Shown: positions 7,732 to 47,279, counted from the first letter of the stretch. The stretch is 64,000 nt of DNA from an uncultured delta proteobacterium (GCA_963814585.1 CAWFDF010000003.1:224001-288000); one strand, 5' to 3'. Notes: generated from the sequence alone by a model not told the origin. Translations and numbers: made by a program.

Positions 7732-7760
7732 CCTGCTATTCCGGATCGGGAGCCGACGTG

Positions 7761-9896: not shown

Positions 9897-9939
9897 CGAA
9901 GGACTCGACGAGGGGCGCCCACGCCCCGGGAGGTCGACG

Positions 9940-11263: not shown

Positions 11264-11303
11264 CGGGCCGGGGGCAGCGCCCCGGGTCCCAGGAGGAGGG
11301 CAC

Positions 11304-11729: not shown

Positions 11730-11753
11730 CGATCGCGGCCGACGACCTCCCCG

Positions 11754-12632: not shown

Positions 12633-12639
12633 GGGAGCC

Positions 12640-19067: not shown

Positions 19068-19084
19068 CTGCGCTCCCTGGCCGC

Positions 19085-20416: not shown

Positions 20417-20436
20417 GGAGGGCCTCCACCCATCGG

Positions 20437-22955: not shown

Positions 22956-22957
22956 GT

Positions 22958-24927: not shown

Positions 24928-24944
24928 GTCGGGTCTCCGCGGGT

Positions 24945-26003: not shown

Positions 26004-26069
26004 GGCCTCGGCCTCCCCTGGTGAACCGCTCCCGGCAGCCCCCCGGTCAGGCCGGGACCCGGTCGCCGA

Positions 26070-26110
26070 TTGACTGGATCGATCTCAAAGTGGTAAACTA
26101 GTACCAGAAT
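26070..26110. promoter_or_regulatory. AT-rich divergent control region between had and gcdH: GTACCAGAAT core, TGGTA-N6-TACCA and TTGA-N11-TCAA inverted repeats
   Basis: ttgactggatcgatctcaaagtggtaaactagtaccagaat; the last 10 bp are identical to the core of the elements at 7700 and 35029. Confidence 0.6.
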
Positions 26111-26181
26111 CCAACGTTCGCCGTCAACGGTCGTCGTCCACCTGGTCCCGGGTCCCCCGGAACCACCCCGAGGAGGCCCGA

Positions 26182-27366
26182 GTGAGTGCCAGCGATCCCG
26201 TGTTCCGCTGGGAGGACGCGCTGCGGCTCGAGGACGAGCTCACCACCGAGGAGCGGCTGGTGCGCGACAGCGCCCGGGACTACTGCCGCGACCGGCTCAT
26301 GCCGCGGGTGCTCGAGGCCAACCGGCAGGAGCGCTTCGATCGCGAGATCCTCCGCGAGCTCGGCGAGCTCGGCATGCTCGGGCCGACCATCGAGGGGTAC
26401 GGCTGCGCCGGGGCCTCCCACGTGGCCTATGGCCTGGTGGCCCGGGAGGTGGAGCGGGTCGACTCCGGCTACCGCTCCGCCATGAGCGTCCAGTCCAGCC
26501 TGGTCATGCACCCCATCCACGCCTACGGCACCGAGGCGCAGCGGCAGAGGTACCTGCCGCCGCTGGCCCGCGGCGAGCTGGTCGGCTGCTTCGGCCTCAC
26601 CGAGCCCGACGCCGGGTCGGACCCGGGGAGCATGCGGAGCCGGGCCCGGAAGGTCGGCGACGGCTGGGTGCTCACCGGCACCAAGATGTGGATCACCAAC
26701 TCGCCCATCGCCGACGTCTTCATCGTCTGGGCCAAGGACGACGAGGGGGTGGTCCGCGGCTTCATCCTCGAGAAGGGGATGAAGGGGCTCTCGGCGCCCA
26801 CCATCGAGGGCAAGTTCAGCCTGCGAGCCTCGGTCACCGGCGAGATCGTCATGGACGAGGTGGCGGTCCCGGAGGCCCAGCGGCTCCCTGGCGCCTCCGG
26901 CCTGAAGGGGCCGTTCGGCTGCCTCAACAAGGCCCGCTACGGCATCGCCTGGGGTGCCCTGGGCGCCGCCGAGTTCTGCTGGCACGCCGCCCGGGCCTAC
27001 ACCCTGGACCGCAAGCAGTTCGGGCGGCCGCTGGCCGCCACCCAGCTGGTCCAGCTCAAGCTGGCCGACATGCAGACCGAGATCACCCTGGGGCTGCAGG
27101 CCTGCCTCCGCGTCGGGCGGCTCATGGACCGCCACGAGGCGACGCCGGAGATGGTCTCGCTCATCAAGCGCAACAGCGCCGGCAAGGCCCTGGCCATCGC
27201 CCGCCTCGCCCGGGACATGCACGGCGGCAACGGCATCTCCGACGAGTTCCACGTCATCCGCCACCTCATGAACCTGGAGTCGGTGAACACCTACGAGGGC
27301 ACCCACGACATCCACGCCCTCGTCCTGGGCCGGGCCCAGACCGGCATCCAGGCCTTCTCGACCTGA
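26182..27366 (+). CDS. gcdH: Glutaryl-CoA dehydrogenase (decarboxylating type)
   Basis: [46 protein letters not shown]. Confidence 0.93.
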
Positions 27367-27412
27367 GTCATCGAGGCGGGGGCCAGGGGCCCCTGCCAGC
27401 GGGAGCGTCCAC

Positions 27413-28600
27413 ATGGCCGAAGCCTGGATCGTCGACGCCGTCCGCACGCCCATGGGGCGCTACGGCGGGGCGCTGGCCGGCGTCCGCCCCGACGACCTCG
27501 GCGCCGTGGTGCTCCGCGCCCTCCTCGCGAGGACCGGCGTCCCCGCGGCGGACGTCGAGGACGTCTACCTCGGCTGCGCCAACCAGGCCGGCGAGGACTG
27601 CCGCAACGTGGCCCGGATGAGCTCGCTCCTGGCCGGCTACCCCATCGAGTCCGGCGCCTGCACCGTGAACCGGCTCTGCGGGTCCGGGCTCGAGGCGGTC
27701 GCCGCCGCGGCGCGCGCCGTCATGGCCGGCGAGGCCCACGTCTACGTCGGGGGGGGCGTCGAGTCGATGTCGCGCGCGCCCTGGGCCATGGCCAAGCCCG
27801 ACCGGGCGCTCCCCCGCGGCAACGCCACGGCCCACGACACCGCGCTCGGCTGGCGCTTCACCAACCCGGCCCTCGAGGCGCTCGGCCACACCGACTCGCT
27901 GGGCCAGACGGCCGAGAACCTGGCGGCCGAGCTCGGCATCTCCCGGCAGGCCCAGGACGCCTACGCCCTCCGCAGCCACCAGAAGGCGGTGGCGGCGCAG
28001 GACGCCGGCCACTTCGCCGCCGAGCTGGTCGGCGTGAAGGTGGAGGGTGGCGAGGTGACCGCCGACGAGGGGCCGCGGCGCGACACCACGCTGGAGCGGC
28101 TGGCCCGGCTCTCCGCCGCCTTCAGGAAGGGCGGCACCGTGACCGCCGGCAACTCCAGCACCCTCAACGACGGCGCCGCCGCCGTGCTGGTGGTCTCGGC
28201 GGACTACGCCCGGGCCCACGGCCTCGAGCCGCTGGCGCGCATCCGCTCGATCGCCGTGGCCGGCGTCCCGCCTCGGACCATGGGGATCGGCCCGGTCCCG
28301 GCCACCAGGAAGGCGCTGGCGCGCGCCGGGCGAACCCTGGCGGAGCTCCACCGCATCGAGCTCAACGAGGCCTTCGCGGCGCAGTCGCTGGCCGTCCTGG
28401 CCGGCTGGGAGCTCGAGGCCGACGACCCGCGGGTCAACGCCAGCGGCGGGGCCATCGCGCTCGGCCACCCCCTCGGCTGCTCGGGGGCCCGGCTGCTGGC
28501 GACGCTGGTCCACGGCCTGGTGCGGACCGGCCAGGCGCTCGGCCTGGCGACGATGTGCATCGGCGTCGGGCAGGGCATCGCCATGGTGGTGGAGCGGTAG
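27413..28600 (+). CDS. Acetyl-CoA C-acyltransferase (PcaF/PaaJ-like thiolase)
   Basis: CANQAGED, NRLCGSG, NEAFA, GHPLGCSG, MCIGVGQG. Confidence 0.9.
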   Translation: MAEAWIVDAVRTPMGRYGGALAGVRPDDLGAVVLRALLARTGVPAADVEDVYLGCANQAGEDCRNVARMSSLLAGYPIESGACTVNRLCGSGLEAVAAAARAVMAGEAHVYVGGGVESMSRAPWAMAKPDRALPRGNATAHDTALGWRFTNPALEALGHTDSLGQTAENLAAELGISRQAQDAYALRSHQKAVAAQDAGHFAAELVGVKVEGGEVTADEGPRRDTTLERLARLSAAFRKGGTVTAGNSSTLNDGAAAVLVVSADYARAHGLEPLARIRSIAVAGVPPRTMGIGPVPATRKALARAGRTLAELHRIELNEAFAAQSLAVLAGWELEADDPRVNASGGAIALGHPLGCSGARLLATLVHGLVRTGQALGLATMCIGVGQGIAMVVER

Positions 28601-29016: not shown

Positions 29017-29197
29017 GGGGATTGGACCTTTCGGGGTGGAGAGGAGCGCCTCGATCTGCTGACCTGCGCCAGCGCCCGGTGTGACATCCCCGGGGCCGAA
29101 AGAGCGCTCGCCCGCCACGCCGTGGGTCCCGCCGCAGCGACTCCTTCCGGCCAGGGAAGCATGCGAAGCTGCAGGCTGGAGCCTGACGGGGGGACCC

Positions 29198-30592
29198 ATG
29201 CCCAGCCTCGCCGAGACCCTTCGCGCCGCCGGGATGGCGGCCACCGACGCCGGGCGCCCCGAGGCGCTGCGGCCCGCGCTGGGCCGTGATCTGCAGGCCG
29301 ACTGGGCGGTGGCCGGTCCGCACCTCCAGGCCTGCGTCGACCTGCTGCGTCAGCTGCCGGCCAGGCCCCGTCGCAGCCCGCCCGAGCAGGCGGCCGCCGC
29401 GGCGCTGCTGGAGGAGGGCCGCTCGGCCCGCGAGGCCCTGCTGCGGCGCCACGCCCCCGCCATCTACGCCCGGCTCACCGCCGGTCGAACCCGCCTGGTG
29501 CGCATGGTGGAGCTGGCCGAGGCGGCGGCCGCCGCCTTCCCGGGCCTGGTGCCGGACGCCGGGCAGGTGGCGTCCGAGCAGCACCACCCGCTGCCGGAGC
29601 AGGACGGCCTGCAAGTCGACCAGGGGATCTTCTTCGCGCACGTGCTCGCCAATCCGGCCTCGGGCCTGCACCTGCTCCAGGCCATGGGACAGGCCACCCC
29701 GGCGGCGCTGGAGCGGCTCCCCGCGCTGCGGGCCGCGGGACGGGTCGAGCTGCCCCAGGCCACGCTGGAGCGGGTCGGGGTGCGGGGGCACATCACCTTC
29801 CACAACCAGCCCTGGCTCAACGCCGAGGACGACGAGACCGAGGAGGCGCTGGAGACGCTGGTGGACCTGGTGCTGCTCGACGACGCCATCCAGGTGGGGG
29901 TGATGCGCGGCGCGCCCATGACCAAGGCGAAGTACGCCGGGCGCCGCGTCTTCGGCGCCGGCATCAACCTGACCCGGCTCTATCACGGCCAGATCTCGCT
30001 GGTGCGCTTCATGCTCCAGCGGGAGGCCGGCCCCCTCGCCAAGGTCTACCGCGGCCTGGCCCGCCCCGAGCCGGATCGGGCCGGCGACGACGATCGCACC
30101 GAGAAGCCCTTCATCGGAGCGGTCGACGCCTTCGCCATCGGCGGCCACTGCCAGCTGCTGCTGGTGCTGGACCGGGTCATCGCCCAGCGCGACGCCTACT
30201 TCAACCTGCCGGCCCGCAAGGAGGGCATCGTCCCCGGCCTGGCCAACCTCCGCCTGCCACGCTTCGTGGGCGAGCGGGCGGCGCGCCAGGGCATCTTCTT
30301 CGACCGCCCCTTCCAGGCCGACAGCCCGGAGGGCCGGCTGCTCTGCGACCAGGTGGTGGACGGGGACGCCGAGATGGAGGCGGCCGTCGCCACCGCCGCC
30401 GCCAATCTGCTCGGCGCCGGCACGACCAGCCTCACCGCCAACCGGCGCGCCCTCCGGGTCGGGGCCGAGCCGCTCGACCTCTTCCGCCGCTACCTGGCCA
30501 CCTACGCCCGCCAGCAGGCCCACTGCGTCTACAGCCCGGCCCTCATCGACAACCTGGTGCGCCACTGGAACGCCCAGCAGCGCGCCACCTGA
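29198..30592 (+). CDS. dpgC: DpgC-like crotonase-fold protein ((di)hydroxyphenylacetyl-CoA 1,2-dioxygenase family)
   Basis: Long helical N-terminal extension with DGLQVDQGIF; motifs LNAED, RRVFGAGINL, EKPFIGAVDAFAIGG, LPARKEGIVPG.ANLRL and ANRRAL match DpgC as I recall it. Confidence 0.8.
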   Translation: MPSLAETLRAAGMAATDAGRPEALRPALGRDLQADWAVAGPHLQACVDLLRQLPARPRRSPPEQAAAAALLEEGRSAREALLRRHAPAIYARLTAGRTRLVRMVELAEAAAAAFPGLVPDAGQVASEQHHPLPEQDGLQVDQGIFFAHVLANPASGLHLLQAMGQATPAALERLPALRAAGRVELPQATLERVGVRGHITFHNQPWLNAEDDETEEALETLVDLVLLDDAIQVGVMRGAPMTKAKYAGRRVFGAGINLTRLYHGQISLVRFMLQREAGPLAKVYRGLARPEPDRAGDDDRTEKPFIGAVDAFAIGGHCQLLLVLDRVIAQRDAYFNLPARKEGIVPGLANLRLPRFVGERAARQGIFFDRPFQADSPEGRLLCDQVVDGDAEMEAAVATAAANLLGAGTTSLTANRRALRVGAEPLDLFRRYLATYARQQAHCVYSPALIDNLVRHWNAQQRAT

Positions 30593-30739: not shown

Positions 30740-31185
30740 TCAAGCCGGCGTCTTGACCGGTCCCTGCCGCCCGCCTGCCGCGCGCCGCTCCTCGTCGACC
30801 AGCGCCAGCATGGTCGCCAGGGAGATCGAGCTCAGGGTGGCCCGGGCGATGTCGTCGATCTCGTCGAAGACCCGGTGCAGGGACCGGCCCTCGGCCGAGA
30901 GCCCCTCCGCGTCGCGCGCTCCCTCGCCGGCGCCGATGGGCTCGAAGAGCTCGATGACGTCGAGGAGCGTCACCCGCCGTGGGTTGCCGCGGAAGCGATA
31001 GCCCCCGCCGGCGCCCCGGAGCGCCTCGACCAGCCCGGCCCGACCGAGGACCCGCAGCACCTTGGAGAGGTGGTTCACCGAGATCCCGAAGCGGCTGGCG
31101 ATCTCGGCGGCGGCCAGCTGCCGGCGCGGGTCGGCGGCCAGCTGGAAGACGGCGAAGAGCGCGAGGCGGGTCGCCACCTGGACCC

Positions 31186-31189
<4 letters not shown>
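30740..31189 (-). CDS. badM: Rrf2-family transcriptional regulator (BadM-like, no Cys)
   Basis: ISVNHLSKVLRVL, RGAGGGY, VTLLDVIELFE; coupled downstream of a GNAT, as with badL-badM. Confidence 0.8.
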
Positions 31190-32982
<1,793 letters not shown>

Positions 32983-32993
32983 GGCCAGCTCCC

Positions 32994-34959
<1,966 letters not shown>

Positions 34960-35028
34960 GCATTCTCCTTCGCGCCGCGCGGGCGCGCTGGGTGCGCCGC
35001 GCCGGAGCGGCGGGGTCCAGGGATGGTG

Positions 35029-35060: not shown

Positions 35061-35131
35061 TCATTGAACAGGACAGGCCAGTCGATCCAGGCTCTCCCGG
35101 GGCGGATTGACGCAGGACGAGGGTGTCGGCC

Positions 35132-37411
35132 ATGCGGATCGTGATTCTCGGTGCTGGAGCGCTCGGCGGGCTCATCGGGGCCCGGCTGGGCGCGTCGGGC
35201 GAGGACGTCACCTTCCTCGAGACCAACGTGGCCCGCGCCAAGCTCCTCGGCGAGCAGGGGCTCTTCCTCTCCGAGTCGGACCGGGGCGAGCAGCACGTCC
35301 AGGTCAAGGTGGTCACCACGCTGGAAGGCGAGCCTCCCGCCGACCTGCTCTTCGTGGCGGTGAAGAGCTACCAGACCGAGGGCGCCATCCGCGCCGCCCT
35401 CCCGGTGATCGACGAGCGGACCTGGATCCTCTCCACCCAGAACGGCATCGGCAACGTCGACCGGATCAGGTCGGTGGTGGGCATCGGCCGCATCCTCACC
35501 GGGATCACCTTCCACTCCATCCAGCACACCGGCCCCAACCGGATGCGTTACCGGACCGGCATCAAGCCGGTCCAGATGGCGCCCCTCGACGGGACGATCA
35601 CCGACGAGGTGCGGGCCGTCGGCGAGGTCTTCTGCCGCGCCGGGATGGCCACCGAGGTCGTCGAGAGCGTCGACGCGGTGGTCTGGCAGAAGCTGGTGCA
35701 CAACGCCGTGGTCAACCCGATCTCGGCCCTCACCGGGATGACCTGCAGCGAGCTGCTCGAGGACGAGGACATGCAGGCGCTGATGCGCGGCCTCTGCCTC
35801 GAGACCGCCGAGGTGATGAAGGCCCGGGGCACGCCCCTGGAGGACCCCGAGGATCCCTACCGCCCCATCGTCCGGTCGCAGAAGGCGCTGGCCGCCAACC
35901 GCCCCTCCATGTGGCAGGACCTGGTCCGCGGCTTCCGCACCGAGATCGACGCCATGAACGGCGGCATCGTCGCCGAGGCGGAGCGGCTGGGGATGCGGGC
36001 GCCGCTCAACTGGGCCGTCGTCCAGCTGGTCCACTCCCGGGAGCGCCAGCAGCAGCGCCGCCAGGAGCGGGGCGCCCAGACCCTCGCCGAGGTGAAGGAG
36101 GTGCAGGCCAGGCTGCCCTCGCGACCGGTGGAGCGCGTCCCCTTCGCCGGGATGCCGCAGGGGCGGGTGCCCCTGGAGAGCGCGCCCCGGCTCAAGGAGA
36201 TCCTGAGCGGCTACTGGCGCGAGCTGGCCGAGGCCAGCCGCGGCCGGAACGTCGCCTGGTGCTCGACCCACGGCCCGGTGGAGATCGCCCGCGCGCTCGG
36301 CTACGTCCCCTACTTCCCGGAGAACCACGCCGCCCTCATCGGCGCCAGCCGGCTCACCGGGAAGTACATCCGGCTGGCCCTGGCCGACGGCTTCTCCCCC
36401 TTCGCCTCCAGCGAGATGGCCAGCGACGTGGGCGCCATGATGGCCGGGGAGACGCCGCTGGCCGGCCTCCACGGGCTCGACGGCGTGCCGCCCCCGGCGG
36501 TCCTGCTCTACAACACCAACGTCGGCACCTACGTGGCCCGCTGGTTCGAGTACTACGCCAACCGGCTCAGCGCCCCGCTGCTCGGCCTCCACCCGCCGCC
36601 GGCCCTCCACGACGTCGAGAAGATCGAGGTGGACGCCGCGGTCCAGCAGACGCTCCGGCTGGTCGACCGGCTCGAGGTGGTCTCCGGCCGGACCCTCGAC
36701 CAGGACCGGCTGGCCGAGGTGGTCGAGCGCTCGGCCCGCGCCGCCAAGCTCTGGGGCGAGATCCTCGACCTGGCCTGCCACACCCCCAGCCCCATCACCT
36801 ACTTCGACACCCTCATCCACGTGGCCCCCATGCTGCTGATGCGGGGGACGCAGGAGGCCATCAGCTACTACGAGATCCTGCTGGCCGAGCTCAAGCACCG
36901 CATCGCCGGGAAGATCGCCGCGGTGCCGGGCGAGCGGTTCCGCTTCTTCTGGGAGGGGGCGCCGGTCTGGTGCGCCCTGCGCCCGCTCGCCAGCCTCTTC
37001 CTCGACGAGGGCATCGCGGTGGTCGGCTCCTGGTACTCGCAGACCTACGCGCTGCAGGGGCTGCAGCGCGAGAACCCCATCGAGAGCATGGCGGCCGCCT
37101 ACACCTCCGTCTATCCGAACCGCTCCCGCGAGTACAAGGCCAAGTACCTGGCCCGCGAGTTCGCCCGTCACGCCGTGGACGCCGCCGTCTTCCACGACGC
37201 CCGGACCTCCCCGGAGCACAGCGCGGCGCGCTCCGGCCTCCACATCCGCCTGCGGCGCGACACCGGCGTCACGCCCATCGTCATCGAGGCCGACACCCAC
37301 GACTTGCGGCTGGTCTCGATCGACCACATCCGCTCCCAGCTCCGCGAGTTCGTGGAGCAGCGCCGGGCGGCGGCCGGCGGCAACGGGGTCCGCGAGACGG
37401 CCGCGCACTAG
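35132..37411 (+). CDS. Fusion: ketopantoate reductase (PanE/ApbA) domain plus a 2-hydroxyacyl-CoA dehydratase/BcrB-like subunit lacking its Fe-S cysteines
   Basis: N-terminal GAGALG, VKSYQ, QNGIG, WQKLVHNAVVNP, SMWQD, TEIDAMNG. The C-terminal half aligns along its length with 38218-39494 (VAWC, FPENH, FHDART). Confidence 0.85.
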   Translation: MRIVILGAGALGGLIGARLGASGEDVTFLETNVARAKLLGEQGLFLSESDRGEQHVQVKVVTTLEGEPPADLLFVAVKSYQTEGAIRAALPVIDERTWILSTQNGIGNVDRIRSVVGIGRILTGITFHSIQHTGPNRMRYRTGIKPVQMAPLDGTITDEVRAVGEVFCRAGMATEVVESVDAVVWQKLVHNAVVNPISALTGMTCSELLEDEDMQALMRGLCLETAEVMKARGTPLEDPEDPYRPIVRSQKALAANRPSMWQDLVRGFRTEIDAMNGGIVAEAERLGMRAPLNWAVVQLVHSRERQQQRRQERGAQTLAEVKEVQARLPSRPVERVPFAGMPQGRVPLESAPRLKEILSGYWRELAEASRGRNVAWCSTHGPVEIARALGYVPYFPENHAALIGASRLTGKYIRLALADGFSPFASSEMASDVGAMMAGETPLAGLHGLDGVPPPAVLLYNTNVGTYVARWFEYYANRLSAPLLGLHPPPALHDVEKIEVDAAVQQTLRLVDRLEVVSGRTLDQDRLAEVVERSARAAKLWGEILDLACHTPSPITYFDTLIHVAPMLLMRGTQEAISYYEILLAELKHRIAGKIAAVPGERFRFFWEGAPVWCALRPLASLFLDEGIAVVGSWYSQTYALQGLQRENPIESMAAAYTSVYPNRSREYKAKYLAREFARHAVDAAVFHDARTSPEHSAARSGLHIRLRRDTGVTPIVIEADTHDLRLVSIDHIRSQLREFVEQRRAAAGGNGVRETAAH

Positions 37412-37435: not shown

Positions 37436-38209
37436 ATGGTCGTGGCGGGCGCAGATCTCGGGACCGAGTGCGTGAAGACGGTGGTCGTGGACGGCGACGG
37501 CAAGGTCGTCGGCCGGGCCACGGTGCCGACGCGAGGCTACTTCCAGGACTGCTTCCAGGAGGCCACCGGGAACGCCCTCCGGGAGGCGCAGGTCCCGGCG
37601 GCGCAGCTGGCCGCCGTCTGCGTCACCGGCTTCGCCGCCTCCTGCGCGCCCATCGCCAGCCAGACGGTGGCCGAGACCCTCTGCCACGCCCGCGGCGCCT
37701 GGCACAAGACGGGGCGGGAGATGACCGTGGTGGACATCGGCGGCCGCGACCCCAAGGTCATCCACGTCGACGCCCGCGGCGCCGTCACCTCGAGCAGGTC
37801 GGTCCGGAAGTGCGCGGTGGGCATCGGCACCTTCCTCATGTTCGCCTCCCGGCACCTCGACGTGCACCCGACCCGGCTCATGGACCTGGCCTCCTCGGCG
37901 GAGAAGGCGGCGCCGGTGGGGAGCTACTGCTCGGTCTTCGCCGAGGTCGAGGTCATCGAGCTGCTGCGCCAGGGCTCCACGGCCGGCGAGATCGCGCTCG
38001 GGTGCATGCAGTCCATCGCCGACCGGATCCTCGAGATCGACCACTTCGAGAGCCCCATCTTCATCACCGGGGGCGTCTGCGAGTACTTCCCCGGCGTGGT
38101 GAAGGCGCTGGCCGACCGCTCCTCGCTCCCCGTCGAGATCCTCCCCGAGCCCATCCTGGCCGGGGCCTACGGCGCCGCCCTCTTCGCGCTCGACCAGGCC
38201 AGGGGCTGA
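37436..38209 (+). CDS. BadF/BadG/BcrA/BcrD (HgdC-type) activator ATPase, degenerate BcrD-like
   Basis: GADLGTECVK, ETLCHARG, DIGGRDPK, RKCAVGIG, SYCSVFAE. Confidence 0.85.
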   Translation: MVVAGADLGTECVKTVVVDGDGKVVGRATVPTRGYFQDCFQEATGNALREAQVPAAQLAAVCVTGFAASCAPIASQTVAETLCHARGAWHKTGREMTVVDIGGRDPKVIHVDARGAVTSSRSVRKCAVGIGTFLMFASRHLDVHPTRLMDLASSAEKAAPVGSYCSVFAEVEVIELLRQGSTAGEIALGCMQSIADRILEIDHFESPIFITGGVCEYFPGVVKALADRSSLPVEILPEPILAGAYGAALFALDQARG

Positions 38210-38217
38210 GGAGGCAC

Positions 38218-39494
38218 ATGGCCACCACCGACCGCCCGTCCCGCGCCCCCGACGCCACCTTCAGCGCCTCGGCCCGGCTCAAGGAGCTGATGGCCGCCCA
38301 CTTCGCCGGCGTGGACCGCGCCGCGCGCGAGAATCCGCCCCGGTGGCCTGGTGCACGAGCGTCGGCCCGGTCGAGCTGCTCCGCGCGCTCGGCTTCGAGG
38401 TCTTCTTCCCCGAGAACCACGGCGCCCTGCTCGGCGCCTCGCGCGTCGCCGGCGAGGTCATGGGCCGGGCCCACGCCCTCGGCTACTCGCCCGACATCTG
38501 CTCCTACCTGACCAGCGACATCGGCGCCTACCTGGCCCGCAAGAGCCCGCTCTCGCGCTTCGGCCTCTCCGGCGCCCCGCGCCCGGACCTCCTCCTCTAC
38601 AGCACCAACCAGTGCCGCGAGGTCCGCGACTGGTTCGAGTTCTACGGGCGCGAGTGGAGCGTCCCGGTGGTCGGGGTCACGTCGTTCCGCGATCTCGGCG
38701 AGGTGGAGGACTCCCACGTCGACGCCATCACCCGGCAGCTCGAGGGGCTGGTGCCGGCGCTGGAGGCGGTGGCCGGGCGCCGGCTCGAGGGCGCCGCGCT
38801 CGAGCTGGCGGTGGGCCACTCGCGGACCTGCAGCGACCTGTGGCGCGATTGCCTGGGGTCCTCGGCCTCCCGCCCGGCGCCGCTCTCCTTCTTCGACGCC
38901 ACCATCCAGATGGGGCCGGCGGTGGTCCTGCGCGGCACGCCCGAGGCCTGCGACTACTACCGGCTCCTCAGTTCCGAGCTGGCCGGGCGCGTCGCCTCGG
39001 GACACGGCGCCCTGCCCCGCGAGCGGTTCCGGCTCTACTGGGACGGCATGCCGATCTGGGGCCGGCTGCGCGACCTGGCCTCGCTCTTCGCCGGGCTGGA
39101 GACCAGCGTGGTGGCCTCGACGTACTGCAACAGCTGGGTCTTCGACGCCCTCGACCCGCGCGATCCGCTGCGCTCCATGGCCCGCGCCTCGCTCGAGCTC
39201 TTCATCGCCCGCTCCGAGGGGCCCAAGCAGCGCTACCTGGCGCGGATGGCCCGCGAGTTCTCGGTCGACGGCCTGGTCTTCCACGACGCCCGGACCTGCC
39301 CCAACAACTCCAACGTCCGCTTCGGCCTGGCCCAGCGCCTGCGGCGCGCTTCCCACCTCCCGGTGCTGGTGCTGGACGGCGACCTCAACGACCTGCGCTG
39401 CTTCTCCGACGAGCAGGCCCGGACCAACGTCGAGGCCTTCGTCGAGCAGCTCGAGGACGCCAGGCCAGCCGCCGCCGGCGGGGGGCGCCCGTGA
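38218..39494 (+). CDS. 2-hydroxyacyl-CoA dehydratase/BcrB-like subunit with intact Cys ligands (frameshift near 38335)
   Basis: FPENHG, PDICSYL, TNQCRE, DARTCPN, LDGDLND, TNVEAFVE; ATG at 38218 after GAGGAGG. Confidence 0.85.
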
Positions 39495-40285
39495 GCGCCG
39501 GCCCCTGCTGGATCGGGGTCGACTCGGGCTCCTGGAACACCAAGGCGGCCCTGGTGGACGCCGGGGGCCGGCTGGTGGCCACGGCCATCGTCCGCACCGG
39601 CGCCGACGTCCGGGCCGCCGCCGAGCGGGTGGTCCACGAGCTCCTCGAGCGCGCCGCCGTCGATCGCTCGTCGGTGGCCGCCCTCTGGACCACCGGCTTC
39701 GGGCGCCACGCCATCCCCGACGCCGCCAGCTCGCGCACCGAGCTGGATGCCCACGCCCGGGGGGCCCTCCAGTACGTCTCCGGGCCGCTCACCGTCATCG
39801 ACATCGGCGGGCAGGACGCCAAGATCATCACCGTGGACGCCGGGGGCCGTCGCACCTCGCACAAGATGAACCGGAAGTGCGCGGCCGGGACGGGGAGCTT
39901 CCTCGAGGAGATGGCGCTCCGGCTCGACGTGCCCATCGGGGCGCTCCCGGCGCTGGCCGCGGGCGCGCAGGAGGAGATCGAGCTGGGGAGCTTCTGCACC
40001 GTCTTCACCGGGACCGAGGTCCTCGGGCTCATCCGCCAGGGGAAGCGGCCGGCCGACCTGGCCCGGGCCGCCTACCGCTCGGTGGTCAAGCGGGTGCTGG
40101 AGATGGAGCGGGTCGAGGGGACCGTGGTGGCCACCGGCGGCGTCGTCTCCCACCACCCGCTGGTGGTGGAGCTGCTGGAGCTGGCCCTCGGCAGCCGGGT
40201 CATCGTGCCCCAGTTCGCGCAGGAGATCGGCGCCGTGGGCGTGGCCCACGCCGCCCGCGCCGCCGCCAGCGCCACCGCCGCCTGA
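39491..40285 (+). CDS. Second HgdC/BcrA-type activator ATPase
   Basis: GVDSGSWNTK, TGFGR, DIGGQDAK, MNRKCAAGTGSFL, SFCTVF. Confidence 0.88.
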   Translation: MSAGPCWIGVDSGSWNTKAALVDAGGRLVATAIVRTGADVRAAAERVVHELLERAAVDRSSVAALWTTGFGRHAIPDAASSRTELDAHARGALQYVSGPLTVIDIGGQDAKIITVDAGGRRTSHKMNRKCAAGTGSFLEEMALRLDVPIGALPALAAGAQEEIELGSFCTVFTGTEVLGLIRQGKRPADLARAAYRSVVKRVLEMERVEGTVVATGGVVSHHPLVVELLELALGSRVIVPQFAQEIGAVGVAHAARAAASATAA

Positions 40286-40293
40286 GCCCGGAC

Positions 40294-41859
40294 ATGCACC
40301 AGCTCCTCAACATCGGCGAGATCATCACCGTCCACGCCCGGCTCCAGCCGGATCGCCCGGCGGTGCGGGATCTCTCCCGGGCCCTGACCTGGGCGCAGTA
40401 CGAGGCGCGGGCCACCCGGCTGGCCAACGCCCTCCTCGGCCTCGGGCTCCGCCCGGGCGACCGGGTGGCCGTCTACGCCCACAACGGCCTGGAGTGGCTG
40501 GAGCTCTACGCCGCCTGCGCCAAGGCCGGCCTGGTCGCCGTGCCGGTCAACTTCCGGCTCGCCCTCCCGGAGGTCCGCTACCTCGTCGAGGACAGCGGCG
40601 CCGCCGCCCTCTTCGTCGGCGCCGACCTGGTCGAGGCCGTCGGGCCATTGCGCGACACGCTGGGCCTCCCCGGCGGCCGCTGGATCCAGATCGGCGGCGA
40701 ACGGCTCCAGGCCGGCTACCGCGGCTACGAGGAGCTGCTGGCCACCGGCACCGACCGTCCGCCCGCCGTCAGCGTCCGCCCCGAGGATCCCTGGACGCTG
40801 ATGTACACCTCGGGGACGACCGGGAGGCCCAAGGGGGCCATCCGCAGCCACCGCAGCTACGCGCTCTTCTACCTCCTCAACGCCATCGAGTTCGGCTTCA
40901 CCCGCGACGACGTGGGGCTGGCGGTCATGCCGCTCTGCCACGTGAACTCGGTCTTCTACGGCTTCGTGTTCACCTACCTGGGGGCCCAGGTCTGCGTCTA
41001 CGACCGCAAGAGCTTCGACCCCGAGCACCTGCTGCGGGTGCTGGCCGAGGAGCGGATCAGCTTCACCTCGCTGGTCCCCACCCACTACACCATGATGCTG
41101 GGCCTCCCCGAGGCGGTCCGCACCGCTCGCGACCTCGGCCACGTGGACAAGCTCCTCATCTCCTCGGCGCCGGCGCGCCGCGACACCAAGCTGGCCATCA
41201 TGTCCTGCTTCCCCTCGTCGCGGCTCTTCGAGGCCTACGGCTCCACCGAGGCCGGGCTGGTCACGCTGCTGCGCCCCGAGCAGCAGTTCGACAAGCTCGG
41301 CTCCATCGGCCGCGAGATCGTGGGCACCGGCCGGCTCCGGCTCCTCGACGAGGGCGGCGCCGAGGTGGCCGACGGGGAGGTCGGCGAGCTCTGGGCCCGG
41401 ACGCCGACCGCCTTCGACGGCTACTGGAACCTCCCCGAGGCCACCGCCCGCGCGCTGCGCGGCGGCTACTGCACCGCCGGCGACCTGGCCCGGCGCGACG
41501 GCGACGGCTTCTACACGCTGGTCGATCGCAAGAGCAACATGATCATCACCGGCGGCGAGAAGGTCTACCCCTCCGAGGTGGAGAAGGTGCTGGCCAGCCA
41601 CCCGGACGTCCGCGACGTCGCGGTCATCGGGCTGCCGGACGCCACCTGGGGCGAGGCGGTCACCGCGGTGGTGGTGGTGCGGCCGGGCTCGGCGCCGTCC
41701 ACGGAGGCGCTGGTGGCGCTGACCCGCCGCGAGCTGGCCGGGTACAAGTGCCCGCGGCGGATCCGCTTCATCGCCGACGAGGAGATGCCCCGGACCGCCA
41801 CCGGCAAGATCCTGCACCGCGTGCTCCGGGACCGGTACGCGGCGCCGGAGGGCGCGTGA
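40294..41859 (+). CDS. AMP-forming acyl-CoA ligase (FadD/aryl-propanoate ligase-like)
   Basis: YTSGTTGRPKG, AYGSTE, TAGDL, DRKSNMIITGGEKVYP, TGKI. Confidence 0.9.
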   Translation: MHQLLNIGEIITVHARLQPDRPAVRDLSRALTWAQYEARATRLANALLGLGLRPGDRVAVYAHNGLEWLELYAACAKAGLVAVPVNFRLALPEVRYLVEDSGAAALFVGADLVEAVGPLRDTLGLPGGRWIQIGGERLQAGYRGYEELLATGTDRPPAVSVRPEDPWTLMYTSGTTGRPKGAIRSHRSYALFYLLNAIEFGFTRDDVGLAVMPLCHVNSVFYGFVFTYLGAQVCVYDRKSFDPEHLLRVLAEERISFTSLVPTHYTMMLGLPEAVRTARDLGHVDKLLISSAPARRDTKLAIMSCFPSSRLFEAYGSTEAGLVTLLRPEQQFDKLGSIGREIVGTGRLRLLDEGGAEVADGEVGELWARTPTAFDGYWNLPEATARALRGGYCTAGDLARRDGDGFYTLVDRKSNMIITGGEKVYPSEVEKVLASHPDVRDVAVIGLPDATWGEAVTAVVVVRPGSAPSTEALVALTRRELAGYKCPRRIRFIADEEMPRTATGKILHRVLRDRYAAPEGA

Positions 41860-42359
41860 AGGAGAGCCTTCGCTTCGTCGTCAACGGCGACCCGGTCGAG
41901 GTGGCGGTCGAGCCCGGCACCACGCTCCTCGAGTGCCTGCGCCAGGAGCTGGGCCTGACCGGCTCGAAGCAGGGCTGCGACAAGGGCGACTGCGGCGCCT
42001 GCACCGTGCTCCTCGACGGGCGCGCCGTCCTCTCCTGCCTCACCCTGGCCCACGCGGTGGCGGGCCGGCAGGTGACGACCGTCGAGGGGCTGGCCGCCGC
42101 CGGCCGGCTCCACCCGCTCCAGGAGGCCTTCGACACCCAGGGGGCGGCCCAGTGCGGCTTCTGCACGCCGGGGATGCTGATGAGCGCCTCCGCGCTGCTC
42201 GAGGAGAACGCCCGGCCGACCCGCCAGGACGTCCGCGAGGCGCTGGCCGGCAACCTCTGCCGCTGCACCGGCTACACCAAGATCCTGGACGCCGTGGTGA
42301 AGGCCGCCGGCGAGATCCGCGGGGCGCGCGCCGCGCCGCGGGACGGGGGCGAGCCGTGA
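41856..42359 (+). CDS. hcrC: 4-hydroxybenzoyl-CoA reductase gamma subunit (2 x [2Fe-2S])
   Basis: KQGCDKGDCGACT, QCGFCTPG, GNLCRCTGY. Confidence 0.85.
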   Translation: MKESLRFVVNGDPVEVAVEPGTTLLECLRQELGLTGSKQGCDKGDCGACTVLLDGRAVLSCLTLAHAVAGRQVTTVEGLAAAGRLHPLQEAFDTQGAAQCGFCTPGMLMSASALLEENARPTRQDVREALAGNLCRCTGYTKILDAVVKAAGEIRGARAAPRDGGEP

Positions 42360-44714
42360 GCGCCGCGCCGCCCGGCGGGCCCGACGGCACGGGGAGCGGC
42401 GCGGGCGCCGCCTTCTCCGTCATCGGCAAGCGCAACCGGAAGGTCGACGGCCGGCGCAAGGTCACCGGCCAGGCCATCTTCACCGACGACCTGCAGCCGG
42501 CCCGGCTGCTCCACGGCAAGATCCTCCGCTCGCCCCACGCCCACGCCCGCATCCGCGCCATCGACACCGCGCCGGCGGCGGCCCTCCCCGGCGTCCACGC
42601 CGTCATCACCGGGCGCGACCTGCCGGTGCCCTACGGCATCATCCCCTGGACCCAGGACGAGTACCCGCTGGCCGTCGACAAGGTGCTCTACGTCGGCGAC
42701 GGGGTGGCGGCGGTGGCGGCCGACGACGAGCGGACCGCCGAGGCGGCGCTCGACCTCATCGTGGTCGACTACGAGGTGCTGCCGGCGGTCCTGACCGTGG
42801 AGGACGCGCTGGCCCACCCCGAGACCCAGGTGAACGCCTTCGCCGGGAAGGGGAACGTCTCCAAGCACGTCCGGCTCAGCTTCGGCGACGTCGAGGGCGG
42901 GCTGGCCGGAGCCGACGAGGTGGTGGAGGACACCTGGTTCCACGCCGGGACGACGCACGCCGCCATCGAGCCGCACTGCGCGGTGGGCGACCTGGGGGCC
43001 GACGGCCTGCTCACCGTCCACTCCAGCACCCAGGTGCCCCACTACCTGCACCGCGAGCTGAGCCGCGTGCTCGAGCTCCCGGTCGACCGCATCCGCGTGA
43101 TCCAGCCGGCGGTCGGCGGCGGCTTCGGCGGCAAGAGCGAGCCCTTCGACCTCGAGTTCGCGGCGGCCAAGCTCTCCTGCTCACCGGCCGGCCGGTGAAG
43201 ATGCTCTACACCCGCGAGGAGGTCTTCTCCGCGCACCGCGGCCGCCACCCGATGCAGATGCGCTACCGGGTCGGCGCCCGCCGCGACGGCACGCTCACCG
43301 CGGTCGAGGCCCGGATCCAGATCGACGGCGGGGCCTACTCCTCCTTCGGCCTGGTGACCACCTACTACTCGGGGCAGCTCCTCGGCGCGCCCTACCGGCT
43401 CCCCGCCTACGAGTTCGACTCGACGCGGGTCTTCACCAACAAGCCCTCCTGCGGCCCCAAGCGCGGCCACGGCTCGGTGCAGCCACGCTTCGCCTTCGAG
43501 GTGCGCTCGACGAGCTGGCCGACCGGCTCGGGCTCGACCCCATCGAGCTGCGACGCCGCAACGTCCTCGGGCCGGACACCCGCACCGTGAACGAGTTCCG
43601 GATCACCTCCAACGGCTTCCTGGAGTGCCTGGCCGGGGTCGAGCGGGCCTCCGGCTGGAAGGAGAAGTTCCGGCGGCTGCCCTACGGCCGCGGGGTCGGC
43701 GTGGCCGGCTCCATGTACATCTCCGGCACCAACTACCCCATCTACCCCAACGAGATGCCGCAGTCGGCGGTGCAGCTCAAGGTGGACCGCTCCGGCCGGG
43801 TCACCGTCTTCACCGGCGTCAGCGACATCGGCCAGGGCTGCGACTCGGTGCTGGCCTACATCGTGGCCGAGGAGCTCGGGGTGGCGCTCGACTCGATCCG
43901 GGTCGTCAGCGCCGACACCGATCTGACCCCGGTGGACCTGGGCGCCTACTCGTCCCGCATCACCTTCATGGTCGGCAACGCCGCCATCGCCGCCTGCGCC
44001 GGGGTGAAGCGCCGGATCCAGGAGGCCCTGGCCGAGCTCTGGACCGTCCCGCCCGGGCAGGTCCGGCTCGCCGACGGCCTCGCCACGGCGCCGGGCAGCC
44101 CCGCGCACGCCCTCCCCATCGCCGAGGCCTTCCAGGCCGCCGAGGCGCGCTTCGGCACCCTCGGCGGGGTCGGCTCCTACGACACGCCCAAGGACGTCCA
44201 CGGCAGCTATCGCGGCGCCACCATCGGCGCCTCGCCGGCGTACTCCTTCAGCGCCCACGTCGCCGAGGTCGACGTCGACGACGAGACCGGGCAGGTCCGG
44301 GTCAGGAAGATCTGGGTGGCCCACGACTGCGGCCGCGCCCTCAACCCCATGCTGGTCGAGGGGCAGATGGAGGGGAGCGCGGCCATGGGCTTCGGCGAGG
44401 CCATCCTCGAGGAGCAGGCCTACGACGGGCGCGGCCTCCACCGGGGCCCTTCCCTGCTCGACTACCCGCTGGCGACCACGCTCGACACCCCCGAGCTGGA
44501 GTCGATCATCGTCGAGAGCGGCGACCGGGAGGGCCCGTACGGCGCCAAGGAGGCCGGCGAGGGGCCGCTCCACCCGTCCATCCCGGCCATCGCCAACGCC
44601 ATCCACGACGCCGTGGGCGTCCGGCTGACGCGCCTGCCGTTCCAGCCGCCGCGCGTGCTGGCCGCGCTCGAGGCCCGGCGCCAGGCCGGCTTGACCTGGA
44701 AGGGGCGACGCTGA
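42356..44714 (+). CDS. hcrA: 4-hydroxybenzoyl-CoA reductase alpha subunit (molybdenum cofactor; frameshifts near 43177 and 43505)
   Basis: ILRSPHAHARI, GGGFGGK, GPKRGHG, DIGQG, GAYSSRITFMVG, VEGQMEG, YGAKEAGEG. Confidence 0.82.
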
Positions 44715-45751
44715 TGCTGCCGCTCCCTCCCCTCCGCCACCTGGCTCCCCGGCACCTCCACGAGGCGCTGGCGCTGCTCGAGGAGGGCAGCCGCGGCCGG
44801 ACCACGCCGGACGGCGACGGGGCCGGGCGGCGCGGGCCGGTCCTCCCCATCGCCGGCGGCACCGACCTGGTGCCCAACCTGAAGCACCGGCTCCTCGACG
44901 TGGAGCTGCTCGTCGACCTGACCCGGCTCGAGGATCCCCACCTCCGCGGGATCCGCGAGGTGGCGGGGAGCCTCCACCTGGGCGCGCTCACCTCGCTGGC
45001 CGACGCCGCGGCCGATCCGCTGCTGCGCGCCCGCCACCCGGTGCTGGCCGGCGCCTACCGCCAGATCGGCTCGCCGCAGCTCCGCAACATGGGGACGGTG
45101 GGAGGCAACCTCTGCCTCGACACCCGCTGCAGCTACGTCAACCAGAGCGCCTTCTGGCGGGCGGCGCTCGGCCACTGCCTGAAGCGCAAGGGCACGGCGT
45201 GCCACGTGGTGCCCGGCGGCACCCGCTGCGTCGCCGCCAGCAGCTCGGACGGCGCGGCCCTGCTCACCGCGCTCGGCGCCGAGGCCCGCGTCGAGGGCAG
45301 GGCCTCGGAGCGCTGGACCCCGGTGGAGGCGCTGTTCCTCGGCGAGGGGCGGCGGCACCTGGCCCTGGCCCCCGGGGAGCTGGTCACCGAGCTGCGCCTC
45401 CCGGCGGCGCCGCCGGGCCGGCGCGCCGCCTACGAGAAGCTCCGGCTGCGCGAGGCCATCGACTTCCCGCTGCTCTCGGTGGCGGCCGTCGCCGACCTGG
45501 GGCCGGCCGGCGCCTGCCGGTCGCTGCGGGTGGTGGTCTCCGCGCTCGGCGCGCGCCCGCGGGTCGTCACCGGCCTCGGCGCCCTCGCCGAGGGCAGGCC
45601 CCTCGACGACGAGGCGCTGGAGCGGGTCGCCGCGGAGGCACATCGCCAGTGCCACCCGCTGGCCAACATCACCGCGGACCCGGCGTGGCGCCGGGCCATG
45701 GTGCCGGTGCTGGTCCGGCGGGCGCTGCGCCGGGCCCTGGGGGGATCGTGA
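44714..45751 (+). CDS. hcrB: 4-hydroxybenzoyl-CoA reductase beta subunit (FAD plus extra [4Fe-4S])
   Basis: AGGTDLVPNLK, QLRNMGTVGGNL, and the diagnostic Cys insert RCSYVNQS.FW...CLK...CHV...C. Confidence 0.88.
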   Translation: MLPLPPLRHLAPRHLHEALALLEEGSRGRTTPDGDGAGRRGPVLPIAGGTDLVPNLKHRLLDVELLVDLTRLEDPHLRGIREVAGSLHLGALTSLADAAADPLLRARHPVLAGAYRQIGSPQLRNMGTVGGNLCLDTRCSYVNQSAFWRAALGHCLKRKGTACHVVPGGTRCVAASSSDGAALLTALGAEARVEGRASERWTPVEALFLGEGRRHLALAPGELVTELRLPAAPPGRRAAYEKLRLREAIDFPLLSVAAVADLGPAGACRSLRVVVSALGARPRVVTGLGALAEGRPLDDEALERVAAEAHRQCHPLANITADPAWRRAMVPVLVRRALRRALGGS

Positions 45752-46665
45752 CCGGCCCCGGTGACGAGCGCGAGGGACCGGGCGGCGCCGAAGGTGGCCG
45801 CGGCGACGACGTCTACGAGGCCCTGGCGCGGGCCCGGCGAGAGCGCGTCCCGGCGGTGCTGGCGACCGTGGTCGAGGTGGCCGGCTCCACGCCGCAGGCC
45901 CCCGGCGCCAAGCTCCTCCTCCTCTCCACCGGACCGGCGATCGGGACCGTCGGCGGCGGGGCCGTCGAGCACCGCGTCCTGGAGGAGGCGCGGGCCATGC
46001 TCGCGCCCGGCGGCCCGGCCCGGCGCCTCGCCGTCTACGAGCTCTCCCGGGACCTCGGCATGTGCTGCGGGGGACGGATGAGGATCTTCCTGGAGCGGAT
46101 CGAGCCGGCGGCCCGGCTCCTGCTCTTCGGCGCCGGCCACGTCGGCCGGGCCATCTGCGCGGCGGCGTCCCGCGCCGGGTTCGAGGTGACGGTGGTCGAC
46201 GAGCGGGAGGCGTGGACGGCCCCCGGCCAGCTGCCGTCGGCGCGGCGGGTCCTCTGCGAAGAGCCCGCCGCCGCGGTGGCCGAGCTCCGGCCCGACGCCG
46301 CCACGGCGTGCGTCGTGGCCACCCACGCCCACGCCATCGACCAGGCCACCGTGAAAGCGCTGCTGGCGACGCCGGCCGCCTTCGTCGGGATGATCGGCAG
46401 CCGCCGCAAGCGGGACAGGTTCCTCCAGCGGCTCTCCGCGCAGGGCGCGTCGCCGGCGCAGCTGGCCCGGCTCCGCACGCCCCTCGGGCTGGACATCGGC
46501 GCGGTCACGCCGGAGGAGATCGCGGTCAGCGTCGTCGCCGAGCTGGTGGCGGTCCGGCGCGGACGGCCGGTGGACCGGTCCGGTCGCCGCGAGGAGCCGG
46601 CTCCTGAGGTCCCGGCGTTGCGGCTGCTCCCGGCCGCCGGCTGGCCGGATCAGGAGGGCGGGTGA
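45748..46665 (+). CDS. xdhC: XdhC/CoxI molybdenum-cofactor insertion chaperone
   Basis: GSTPQAPGAK, GTVGGGAVE, GMCCGG, GMIGSRRK, TPEEIAVS. Confidence 0.88.
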   Translation: MTGPGDEREGPGGAEGGRGDDVYEALARARRERVPAVLATVVEVAGSTPQAPGAKLLLLSTGPAIGTVGGGAVEHRVLEEARAMLAPGGPARRLAVYELSRDLGMCCGGRMRIFLERIEPAARLLLFGAGHVGRAICAAASRAGFEVTVVDEREAWTAPGQLPSARRVLCEEPAAAVAELRPDAATACVVATHAHAIDQATVKALLATPAAFVGMIGSRRKRDRFLQRLSAQGASPAQLARLRTPLGLDIGAVTPEEIAVSVVAELVAVRRGRPVDRSGRREEPAPEVPALRLLPAAGWPDQEGG

Positions 46666-47279
46666 GCGTCGCCGCCGTCGTCCTCGCCGCCGGGGCGTCC
46701 AGCCGGATGGGATCGCCCAAGCCGCTCCTCGAGCTCCAGGGCGAGACCTTCCTCGGCCGCATCCTCCGGACCCTCGCGGCGGCGGAGGGCGTCGGTGACC
46801 GGATCGCCGTGCTCGGCCACCAGTCGGCCCGGGTCCGGCAGGGCGTCGGCCTCGCCGGCGCCCGCGCGGTCACCTGCCGGAGCTGGCGGCGGGGGATGCT
46901 GGCGTCGCTCCGCTGCGGCGTCCGCGCCGCGCTGGAGGCGGACCCGGGGCTGCCGGCCGTGCTGGTCTGCCACGTCGACCAGCCCCTCCTCCGGGCCGCC
47001 ACCGCCGCCAGGCTGGTGGGCGCCTTCCGCGCCGGACGGGGTGACGTCCTGGTCGCCACCCATGGCGGCCGCCCCGGGCACCCGGTCCTGCTGGCCCGTG
47101 GCTTCCTCGACCGGCTCCTGGCCGACCGCGGGGTCGAGTCGCTGGCCGCGGCCATCGCCCGGCACGCCCGCCGCCGGGTCGAGGTGGCATGCCGGGACGC
47201 CGCCGTGACGCAGAACATCAATACCAAGGAGGCCCTGGCCGCACTCGAGGTGCAGTTGTCGATTCCCAAGGCGTGTTGA
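46662..47279 (+). CDS. mocA: Molybdenum cofactor cytidylyltransferase (MocA-like)
   Basis: VLAAGASSRMG.PK, GMLASL, DQP, GHPVL; next to an MCD-dependent enzyme. Confidence 0.8.
   Translation: MSVAAVVLAAGASSRMGSPKPLLELQGETFLGRILRTLAAAEGVGDRIAVLGHQSARVRQGVGLAGARAVTCRSWRRGMLASLRCGVRAALEADPGLPAVLVCHVDQPLLRAATAARLVGAFRAGRGDVLVATHGGRPGHPVLLARGFLDRLLADRGVESLAAAIARHARRRVEVACRDAAVTQNINTKEALAALEVQLSIPKAC

Follow-up and report, generated by a model that had tools for sequence, protein, structure and literature searches.

An HGD-D domain that has lost the three cysteine ligands of its [4Fe-4S] cluster is encoded in the DNA of an uncultured delta proteobacterium, and the loss is old and selected. The window, the whole stretch of 64 000 nucleotides that was analysed (G000:C3:224001-288000), is ∼73% G+C and has several frameshifts. 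It carries an open reading frame of 762 amino acids (35123–37411) in which an N-terminal PanE/ApbA domain is fused to a C-terminal HGD-D domain (PF06050), here termed HGDa. A paralogue, HGDb, and two activator genes, Act1 and Act2, follow (Table 1), and both paralogues are above the PF06050 cut-off in profile searches. The gene for the clusterless HGDa recurs, conserved, among uncultured bacteria of sediments and soils, and HGDa homologue records carry the names of several phyla. The reading favoured here, which is given an even chance, is that HGDa and HGDb form a 2-hydroxyacyl-CoA dehydratase with a single cluster and a tethered 2-oxoacid reductase, which probably acts on a route from phenylalanine and tyrosine via aryl-lactyl-CoA to benzoyl-CoA.

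Table 1. Features of the module and adjoining genes, numbered from the first nucleotide of the window.
Feature	Position	Strand	Remarks
PanE/ApbA-family 2-oxoacid reductase domain of fusion	35123..36058	+	likely start ATG 35132; TIGR00745
Interdomain helix and flexible linker	36059..36169	+	model helix 294–330; pLDDT <50 at 332–340
HGDa, alpha-type HGD-D domain without three [4Fe-4S] ligands	36170..37411	+	TM 0.92 to HadB
Act1, putative activator subunit, both cluster Cys, remodelled phosphate site	37436..38209	+	TIGR00241 136.5 bits, cut-off 125.4
HGDb, alpha-type subunit, three ligands and active-site Ser, Glu, Tyr	38218..39494	+	frameshifted
Act2, putative activator subunit near canonical type	39491..40285	+	TIGR00241 180.5 bits
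AMP-forming acyl-CoA ligase, FadD-like	40294..41859	+	below benzoate-ligase cut-off
4-Hydroxybenzoyl-CoA-reductase-like hcrC, hcrA (frameshifted), hcrB, then xdhC, mocA	41856..47279	+	
3-Hydroxyacyl-CoA dehydrogenase/enoyl-CoA hydratase fusion and thiolase, divergent	31674..34960	-	frameshifted here; ends approximate

Cluster ligands of HGDa and HGDb

The ligands Cys84, Cys117 and Cys346 of HadB (3O3M_A) align to Ser429, Gly468 and Ser696 of the fusion (codons TCC at 36407, GGC at 36524 and TCC at 37208). HGDb has Cys in all three columns (codons at 38499, 38613 and 39297), and the ligands stated for BzdO, Cys95, Cys128 and Cys380, fall in the same columns. A sequence-only reading of this region had contrasted a fused subunit devoid of cluster cysteines with an intact paralogue, and this is borne out, as HGDb retains the three ligand cysteines in 29/29 rows of a locus set drawn from genome and metagenome scans (rows with at least 85% query coverage and at least 40% identity). 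It had named four lost cluster cysteines, of which three are ligands. The remaining one (codon 39126) does not ligate this cluster; HadB, BzdO, MbdO and BcrB lack it, and it is present in 16/51 HGDa copies. The paralogue that it had placed at 38218–39494 is HGDb, but in the window this gene is not a single open frame, being one base short near 38333–38340 relative to the L001 locus. An additional G stands at this site in two contigs from a related strain, and the frameshift is therefore probably a read error.

Conservation of the loss was followed in 120 listed homologues of 326 protein-search matches (56–94% identity; 106 are full fusions). Cys is found at sites 1, 2 and 3 in 0/120, 0/120 and 18/120 of those listed; 102 have no ligand Cys, 18 have one and none has more. 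Site 2 is Gly or Ala in all 51 HGDa rows of the locus set, site 3 is Cys in five, and one copy, L020, has Cys at site 1. A concerted loss of all ligands, as had been proposed, thus describes the 102 listed homologues, but not the 18 with a site 3 Cys nor L020. More distant full-length representatives (n = 94) have three ligands in 91 cases, two in one and none in two. HGDa also has no equivalents of BzdO Ser44 and Tyr97, and the Glu65 equivalent is kept in 51/51.

Over 13 pairs of the window and another locus, HGDa has a dN/dS of 0.28 and HGDb one of 0.23, values obtained by simple counting in GC-rich sequence. The conservation across homologues, this dN/dS and the position of other cysteines outside the ligand columns argue that the loss is old and selected. 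The orthologue alignment for which the earlier reading had called thus finds the cysteine loss conserved, and the selection for a cluster-free subunit that it had proposed accords with purifying selection and a retained fold. The several frameshifts in the window could point to lineage-specific decay or sequencing error, yet such an origin is refuted, since the same state recurs in the 120 listed homologues, down to 56% identity and under the names of several phyla, with dN/dS at 0.28 and agreement from independent contigs. Short-read contigs of near-identical strains that cover the three HGDa codons have 2–5 differences per 0.6–1.2 kb, and among 40 listed strain differences (253 more exist) none is on the three ligand codons.

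Other cysteines of HGDa are common among the 120 listed homologues (Cys380 in 104, Cys617 in 117, Cys552 in 57), none of them in a ligand column, and His402, His566, His691 and His726 are present in at least 95%. Cys380, Cys617 and the His residues might hold a metal, or HGDa might carry a flavin, as described for some HADs (PMC11574389, partial text), and in either form still relay electrons. This is very improbable: Cys380 and Cys617 are outside the ligand columns, Cys617 falls to 34/51 in the wider locus set, and Cys380 is also present in HGDb. A search for an alternative cysteine cluster site, which the earlier reading had regarded as decisive, finds no second set of three conserved Cys among the 120 listed homologues. 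HGDa almost certainly has no canonical cluster.

Subunit type, pairing and activators

The best profile models for both paralogues are HadB, BcrB and BzdO, all far under cut-off. HGDa and HGDb score 143 and 170 bits on the HadB model NF052455 (cut-off 750), and HGDb scores 119 versus 486.55 bits on the BcrB model and 80 versus 448.6 bits on the BzdO model. The operon has no match to the BcrC or BzdN models of the beta-type subunit. By these matches both paralogues are alpha-type, and the earlier view of an operon with two alpha-type and no beta-type subunits stands. The 170 of 750 bits of HGDb on the HadB model is low for the dehydratase favoured here. The fusion model has a pLDDT of 91.9 with a flexible linker, and the HGDa domain and HGDb models each have a TM score of 0.92 to HadB, with MbdO and BzdO as the next structural matches.

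The complex predicted for the HGDa–HGDb pair of L001 has a score of 0.80, and the best of three controls 0.00; the mark used is reached by 116/157 solved complexes and 2/215 mismatched pairs. Contacts agree between runs to at least 98%, and the partner pLDDT is at least 91. Of the four proteins whose joint modelling the earlier reading had asked for, this pair separates from the controls, but the score possibly reflects likeness to solved dimers, perhaps memory, rather than binding. The model interface is pseudo-symmetric with 35 shared columns; conservation in the interface columns hardly exceeds that elsewhere (0.76 versus 0.72), which is no clear signal, and HGDb interface residues resemble those of single-copy forms. 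In a class sample of 301 genomes, which as kin are not independent, HGDa is found in 19, of which 18 have HGDb (the lone exception is at a contig end) and 18 have BcrB; BcrB is present in 41 in total. HGDa likely pairs with HGDb.

At the gene level, HGDa adjoins Act1 in 20/21 genome loci, the 21st being a distant archaeal match. HGDb–Act2 is next to HGDa–Act1 in 17 and is separated from it in L026, L028, L029 and G345. A phylum sample of 301 genomes has 12 with both paralogues and 15 (Myxococcota) with one Cys-intact copy and one activator, two further weak matches having been left out. No HGDa or Act1 orthologue is found in these 15 genomes, which are 82–100% complete. By gene content, HGDa–Act1 is therefore an add-on and not a required half, and that HGDb-type subunits manage without it in 15 genomes is an observation not readily accommodated by the favoured reading. 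Second matches of ∼490 bits in single-subunit genomes were considered as HGDa and rejected: the five fetched, as well as two of lower score, fall in other clades and retain the ligand Cys where aligned.

HGDa, HGDb, the single-subunit forms and P0124 are one clade (support 100/97). Within the subunit tree, where HGDa is on a long branch, the single-subunit forms are nested among HGDb (support 96–98), which would mean loss of HGDa. In the PanE tree, the PanE of single-subunit genomes stands beside the fused PanE. The two trees point different ways, and the order of events may have been either gain or loss of HGDa.

These data raise the question of whether HGDb and Act2 act alone as homodimers, with PanE–HGDa and Act1 as an accessory module, e.g. 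an acyl-CoA-binding regulator of the fused reductase. The 15 genomes with only an intact subunit and one activator, nested as they are among HGDb, would fit this, as would the HGDa–Act1 and HGDb–Act2 gene pairs that lie apart in several loci. A further point in its favour is the strong conservation in HGDa of those helices which, in BzdO, form the lining of the CoA channel. We consider it rather improbable, since an Act1 dimer with both Cys would face no acceptor in a cluster-free HGDa dimer, HGDa is without HGDb in only the one genome of 19, and the mixed pair passes complex prediction (the mixed pair and controls were those run). The one-cluster heterodimer that had been suggested thus gains from the predicted binding of HGDa to HGDb, but this partner is dispensable for HGDb-type subunits, which may form homodimers here as well. 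A scaffold role for HGDa, also suggested, draws on the PanE tether and the kept interface; for the companion suggestion of an acyl-CoA sensor, the conserved channel-lining helices are the one point in favour.

Act1 has the cluster residues Cys126 and Cys165 in 59/59 sequences. At the place of DCCP-R Thr10 it has Glu11 (59/59), with Arg104 for Gln93 (56/59) and Val or Leu for Asn112; acidic residues are at two proposed base positions (57/59 each), and an Arg kept in Act2 in 28/28 is missing. Act2 retains both cluster Cys, Arg69, Glu81, Asp106 and Asn124 in 28/28, and has Trp at the Thr10 place in 25/28. The BcrD of the window is even more degenerate in the ATP site than Act1 or Act2. An impaired Act1 ATPase is only a guess, because Act2 and this BcrD also depart from canonical residues. 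The sequence-only reading had mentioned neither these parallel changes beside HGDa nor the connection of the module to the benzoyl-CoA pathway. With both Cys present in each, we infer that Act1 and Act2 pair as a two-subunit activator with a bridging cluster.

In DCCP:DCCP-R, the activator cluster is on the two-fold axis, ∼17 Å from the clusters of both subunits, and similar activator complexes are thought likely for HADs (PMC9351452, partial text). Because the activator sits on this axis, a cluster-free HGDa could supply half of the docking surface, and the electron could pass straight to HGDb. The 17 Å in DCCP exceeds the usual electron-transfer distance (PMC9351452, partial text), a difficulty for the favoured reading.

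PanE domain, gene neighbourhood and proposed pathway

The PanE domain scores 239 bits on TIGR00745 (cut-off 141). Lys190, Asn107, Asn194, Asn198, Asn259, Ser262 and Glu274 are kept in nearly all domain-bearing homologues. Residue 33, at the end of the second strand, is acidic in 106/106, and an acidic residue at this place is of the NAD type. Alignment columns were matched to what we take to be the E. coli ketopantoate reductase numbering. In ketopantoate reductase, Asn194 and Asn241 contact the 4-OH of pantoate (PMC10127515, partial text). The fused PanE keeps the Asn241 place and has Cys at the Asn194 place in 111/111; the T. kodakarensis ketopantoate reductase has Asn in that column. NADH-dependent D-2-hydroxyacid dehydrogenases of the PanE family exist (10.1101/2024.01.05.573888, partial text).

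A free PanE gene is found in the fetched stretch of 10/15 single-subunit genomes, in two distant PanE lineages. Four of these genomes (G364, G392, G340, G347) have a free PanE 57–59% identical to the fused domain and the same gene order minus HGDa–Act1. P0124 has a distant PanE fused to a Cys-intact copy. The free genes and the P0124 fusion indicate that PanE and this dehydratase clade were linked repeatedly. The PanE and dehydratase steps are not consecutive in the proposed pathway, and a benefit of the tether is therefore hard to see.

The ligase is 3′ of Act2 in 16/20 genome loci. Among 24 loci of at least 10 kb (from L016–L064), had is near the module and over its cut-off in 18, a hydratase in 17 and an hcrA-like gene in 14. 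The Had and Oah copies tested near the module are above their cut-offs, with oah close by, and glutaryl-CoA dehydrogenase and beta-oxidation genes are among the neighbours. The intact hcr-like orthologue in L012 scores 859 on TIGR03194 (cut-off 994.55). In G055, the row behind bcrCBAD is ligase, PanE, dehydrogenase/hydratase, thiolase, hcr-like, subunit and activator, and would seem to spell a route from arylpyruvate to benzoyl-CoA. Such chemistry has been sketched for another organism (PMC13416013, partial text). No aminotransferase was noticed in the loci examined, though there was no dedicated look for one. One RNA run had only 0.05 of the words present (contigs only).

In the proposed mechanism, PanE with NADH would reduce a 2-oxoacid to the (R)-2-hydroxy acid, and the ligase would form its CoA ester. 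The Act1/Act2 dimer, with one bridging [4Fe-4S], would dock across the HGDa/HGDb two-fold axis like DCCP-R on DCCP and hand a single catalytic electron to the cluster of HGDb with no relay cluster in between, and HGDb would eliminate water via ketyl-radical chemistry. A dehydratase rather than a reductase is quite probable. An aryl-lactyl substrate is as well supported as not; the likeliest would be phenyllactyl-CoA and 4-hydroxyphenyllactyl-CoA, and beta-oxidation enzymes encoded next to the module could then trim the resulting enoyl-CoAs to benzoyl-CoA or to 4-hydroxybenzoyl-CoA, with the Hcr-like enzyme acting on the hydroxylated product. These beta-oxidation genes might equally well act in the lower benzoyl-CoA pathway.

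The closest solved relative is the aliphatic HadB, and glutaryl-CoA dehydrogenase and beta-oxidation genes adjoin the module. Perhaps, then, the same architecture acts on 2-hydroxyglutaryl-CoA or another aliphatic 2-hydroxyacyl-CoA derived from an amino acid, and feeds the lower benzoyl-CoA pathway. This is a good deal less probable than an aryl-lactyl substrate, given the recurrent hcr-like genes (HcrA-like in 14/24 long loci) and the presence in 21/22 clade-bearing genomes of the class sample of BcrB, for which a general route of amino-acid breakdown would have no use. A Gly at the place of BzdO Trp46 and HadB Phe39 would also suggest a larger pocket.

The flanking had, oah and hydratase genes suggested the module as the main benzoyl-CoA reductase, as did the lack of a BcrB-like gene in 12/15 single-subunit genomes (BzdO is over cut-off in 0/15). 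This was rejected. Among the 20 genomes with HGDa, BcrB is present in 17 and BamB in one; among the 15 with a single subunit, the numbers are three and 11. A separate ring reductase thus accompanies the module in 18/20 and 14/15, i.e. 32/35 genomes. BamB is found in 11 of the 12 genomes from which the argument of a missing reductase came. G340 has, on the contig of the module, an AOR-family gene that was considered as BamB, but at 199 bits it is not BamB. By gene content, the module does not act as the main ring reductase.

A second, BCR-like ATP-dependent reductase for substituted benzoyl-CoA is a related alternative, and an improbable one. Its activator of two genes would be comparable to BcrAD, 18/24 long loci have had over its cut-off, oah and a hydratase lie nearby, and after HadB the best structural matches are MbdO and BzdO; but another ring reductase is present in 32/35 genomes, a two-electron reduction would proceed without a storage cluster, and the PanE link would be left unexplained. 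The module is also present in class II users, described as too energy-limited for stoichiometric use of ATP (PMC11971306, partial text). Given this energy limitation, its presence beside class II reductases would fit an enzyme whose ATP use is confined to starting the reaction.

Relation to known systems

The boldest form of the favoured reading is a half-dead tetramer, in which the cluster-free HGDa and an ATPase-impaired Act1 stand beside live twins, with one ATP site sending the electron into the only active-site cluster and no relay. This tetramer would serve an undescribed anaerobic route by which Myxococcota and other uncultured phyla convert phenylalanine and tyrosine to benzoyl-CoA through aryl-lactyl-CoA and cinnamoyl-CoA. 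It is less probable than not. Earlier iron determinations on the A. fermentans and C. sporogenes enzymes reportedly pointed to a single cluster per dimer, and for Archaeoglobus fulgidus an aryl-lactate pathway ending in benzoyl-CoA is said to have been put forward; each would make the present reading less novel. The literature covered, which leaves out most subscription journals, yielded no description of a PanE–HGD-D fusion or of the module, and none was found on MbdONPQ structures. Protein cluster look-ups gave no relative with an experimentally based name.

A dimer with one empty site, together with the single-subunit forms, would be a natural test of the need for a relay. Engineered one-cluster BzdNO variants are described as unstable, which blocked the assignment of EPR signals (PMC11971306, partial text), and the HGDa/HGDb family would supply a natural one-cluster protein for this purpose. 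The module also marks an as yet unassigned step tied to anaerobic aromatic degradation, occurring in about half of the BcrB-bearing genomes of the class sample (21/41) and in class II users.

The phenyllactate system FldH/FldA/FldBC/FldI is a close relative, and with HAD systems (HadBC and Fld) the module has in common a gene set of reductase, CoA activation and dehydratase. It shares the fold of HadBC/HadI (3O3M, 4EHT; TM 0.92 for both paralogues) and an ATP-dependent activator, and HGDb shares, as judged by sequence only, the three-Cys active-site cluster site with Ser and Glu. The module differs from HadBC in the absence of a beta subunit, both subunits being alpha-type and one without ligands, and in a fused PanE-family reductase, an AMP-forming ligase and a location in benzoyl-CoA pathway clusters. 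It has two activator genes where HadBC has a homodimeric activator; the 15 single-subunit genomes have one gene. The literature describes the catalytic dimers of HADs and class I BCRs as having one cluster per subunit (PMC8473912, PMC11574389, PMC7317905, PMC11971306, partial texts).

Compared with PanE-family enzymes (D-mandelate dehydrogenase 3WFI; ketopantoate reductases 5HWS and 2OFP), the fold and the catalytic Lys, Asn, Ser and Glu are common. The module PanE differs in its fusion to HGD-D and in a Cys for the 4-OH-binding Asn, and its 22–30% identity to proteins of this type is too low for substrate assignment.

Class I BCRs (BcrABCD, BzdNOPQ, MbdNOPQ; 8S02, 9GAI) likewise have two catalytic-fold and two activator subunits, and the neighbours dch, had and oah. 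The module, in contrast, has no C/N-type subunit and no second or double-cubane cluster, scores far below cut-off on all BCR models, and coexists with a canonical reductase. DCCP/DCCP-R (6ENO, 7YZM) resembles the 15 single-subunit genomes in its single subunit gene and single activator gene, and Cys304 of HGDb (L001 numbering) fits the spacing of the fifth Cys of the DCCP motif. The seven-Cys motif is absent (NF040772, 38 versus 350 bits). A double-cubane cluster in HGDb was thus rejected, the three proximal ligands and Cys304 being the only ones present and the next motif Cys missing. By these comparisons, the module falls outside the HadBC-type HADs, the class I BCRs and DCCP, and most likely works like an HAD.

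Benzoyl-CoA genes and their surroundings

The benzoyl-CoA gene cluster of the window includes a complete bcrCBAD set, and profile scores place BcrA, BcrB, BcrD, Dch and Had above their model cut-offs. The accompanying Rrf2 and GNAT genes are presumably BadM/BadL-like. No benzoate-CoA ligase above cut-off was found in the source genome, which is 91.7% complete. The indolepyruvate-oxidoreductase-like, ligase and transporter genes upstream of bcr may form a competing route for arylpyruvates. A gene for a DpgC-like dioxygenase sits within this anaerobic cluster, and is present at two other loci (L005 and L048).

Among loci L016–L052 there is an Hcr-like molybdoenzyme, the FAD subunit of which is only 25–30% like that of the window and has a TIGR03195 match confined to its start. 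In a Myxococcota family (f12; L085, L119, L120, L127; G364, G340, G347), the class II benzoyl-CoA reductase subunit BamB is found in nine of ten genomes and Oah in all ten.

Features and their locations
Feature	Location	Remarks
Indolepyruvate-oxidoreductase-like genes, two PaaK-like ligases, branched-chain amino-acid ABC transporter	window 7758–16542	upstream of bcr
bcrCBAD with dch, oah, had, glutaryl-CoA dehydrogenase, thiolase, Rrf2 and GNAT genes	window 18228–28600, 30740–31671	Thauera-type
DpgC-like dioxygenase	window 29081–30592	score 422 vs cut-off 530
Hcr-like molybdoenzyme	e.g. L028:1466–5193	divergent FAD subunit
Third alpha-type subunit, with an activator	G000:C9:51694–52875	all three ligands kept
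Additional HGDb cysteines	window 38352, 39126; L001:10055–11329

Relatives of the dehydratase subunits

The third alpha-type subunit of the source genome belongs to a different clade, and is common in the family. P0124 (GAB4289179.1) has a PanE domain fused to a Cys-intact subunit; this domain shows only 20% identity to that of the window and probably represents an independent fusion event. P0162, from the same clade as HGDa (the PanE-fused, ligand-less subunit) and HGDb (its Cys-intact paralogue), also lacks the three ligands. It is placed away from HGDa in the tree and is possibly a second ligand loss.

Additional cysteines of HGDb

Two additional Cys residues of HGDb are kept in 29 of 29 copies, as well as in all 15 single-subunit forms from Myxococcota genomes without HGDa. 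One of these fits the spacing of a ligand of the double-cubane cluster, and this residue would line the substrate pocket.
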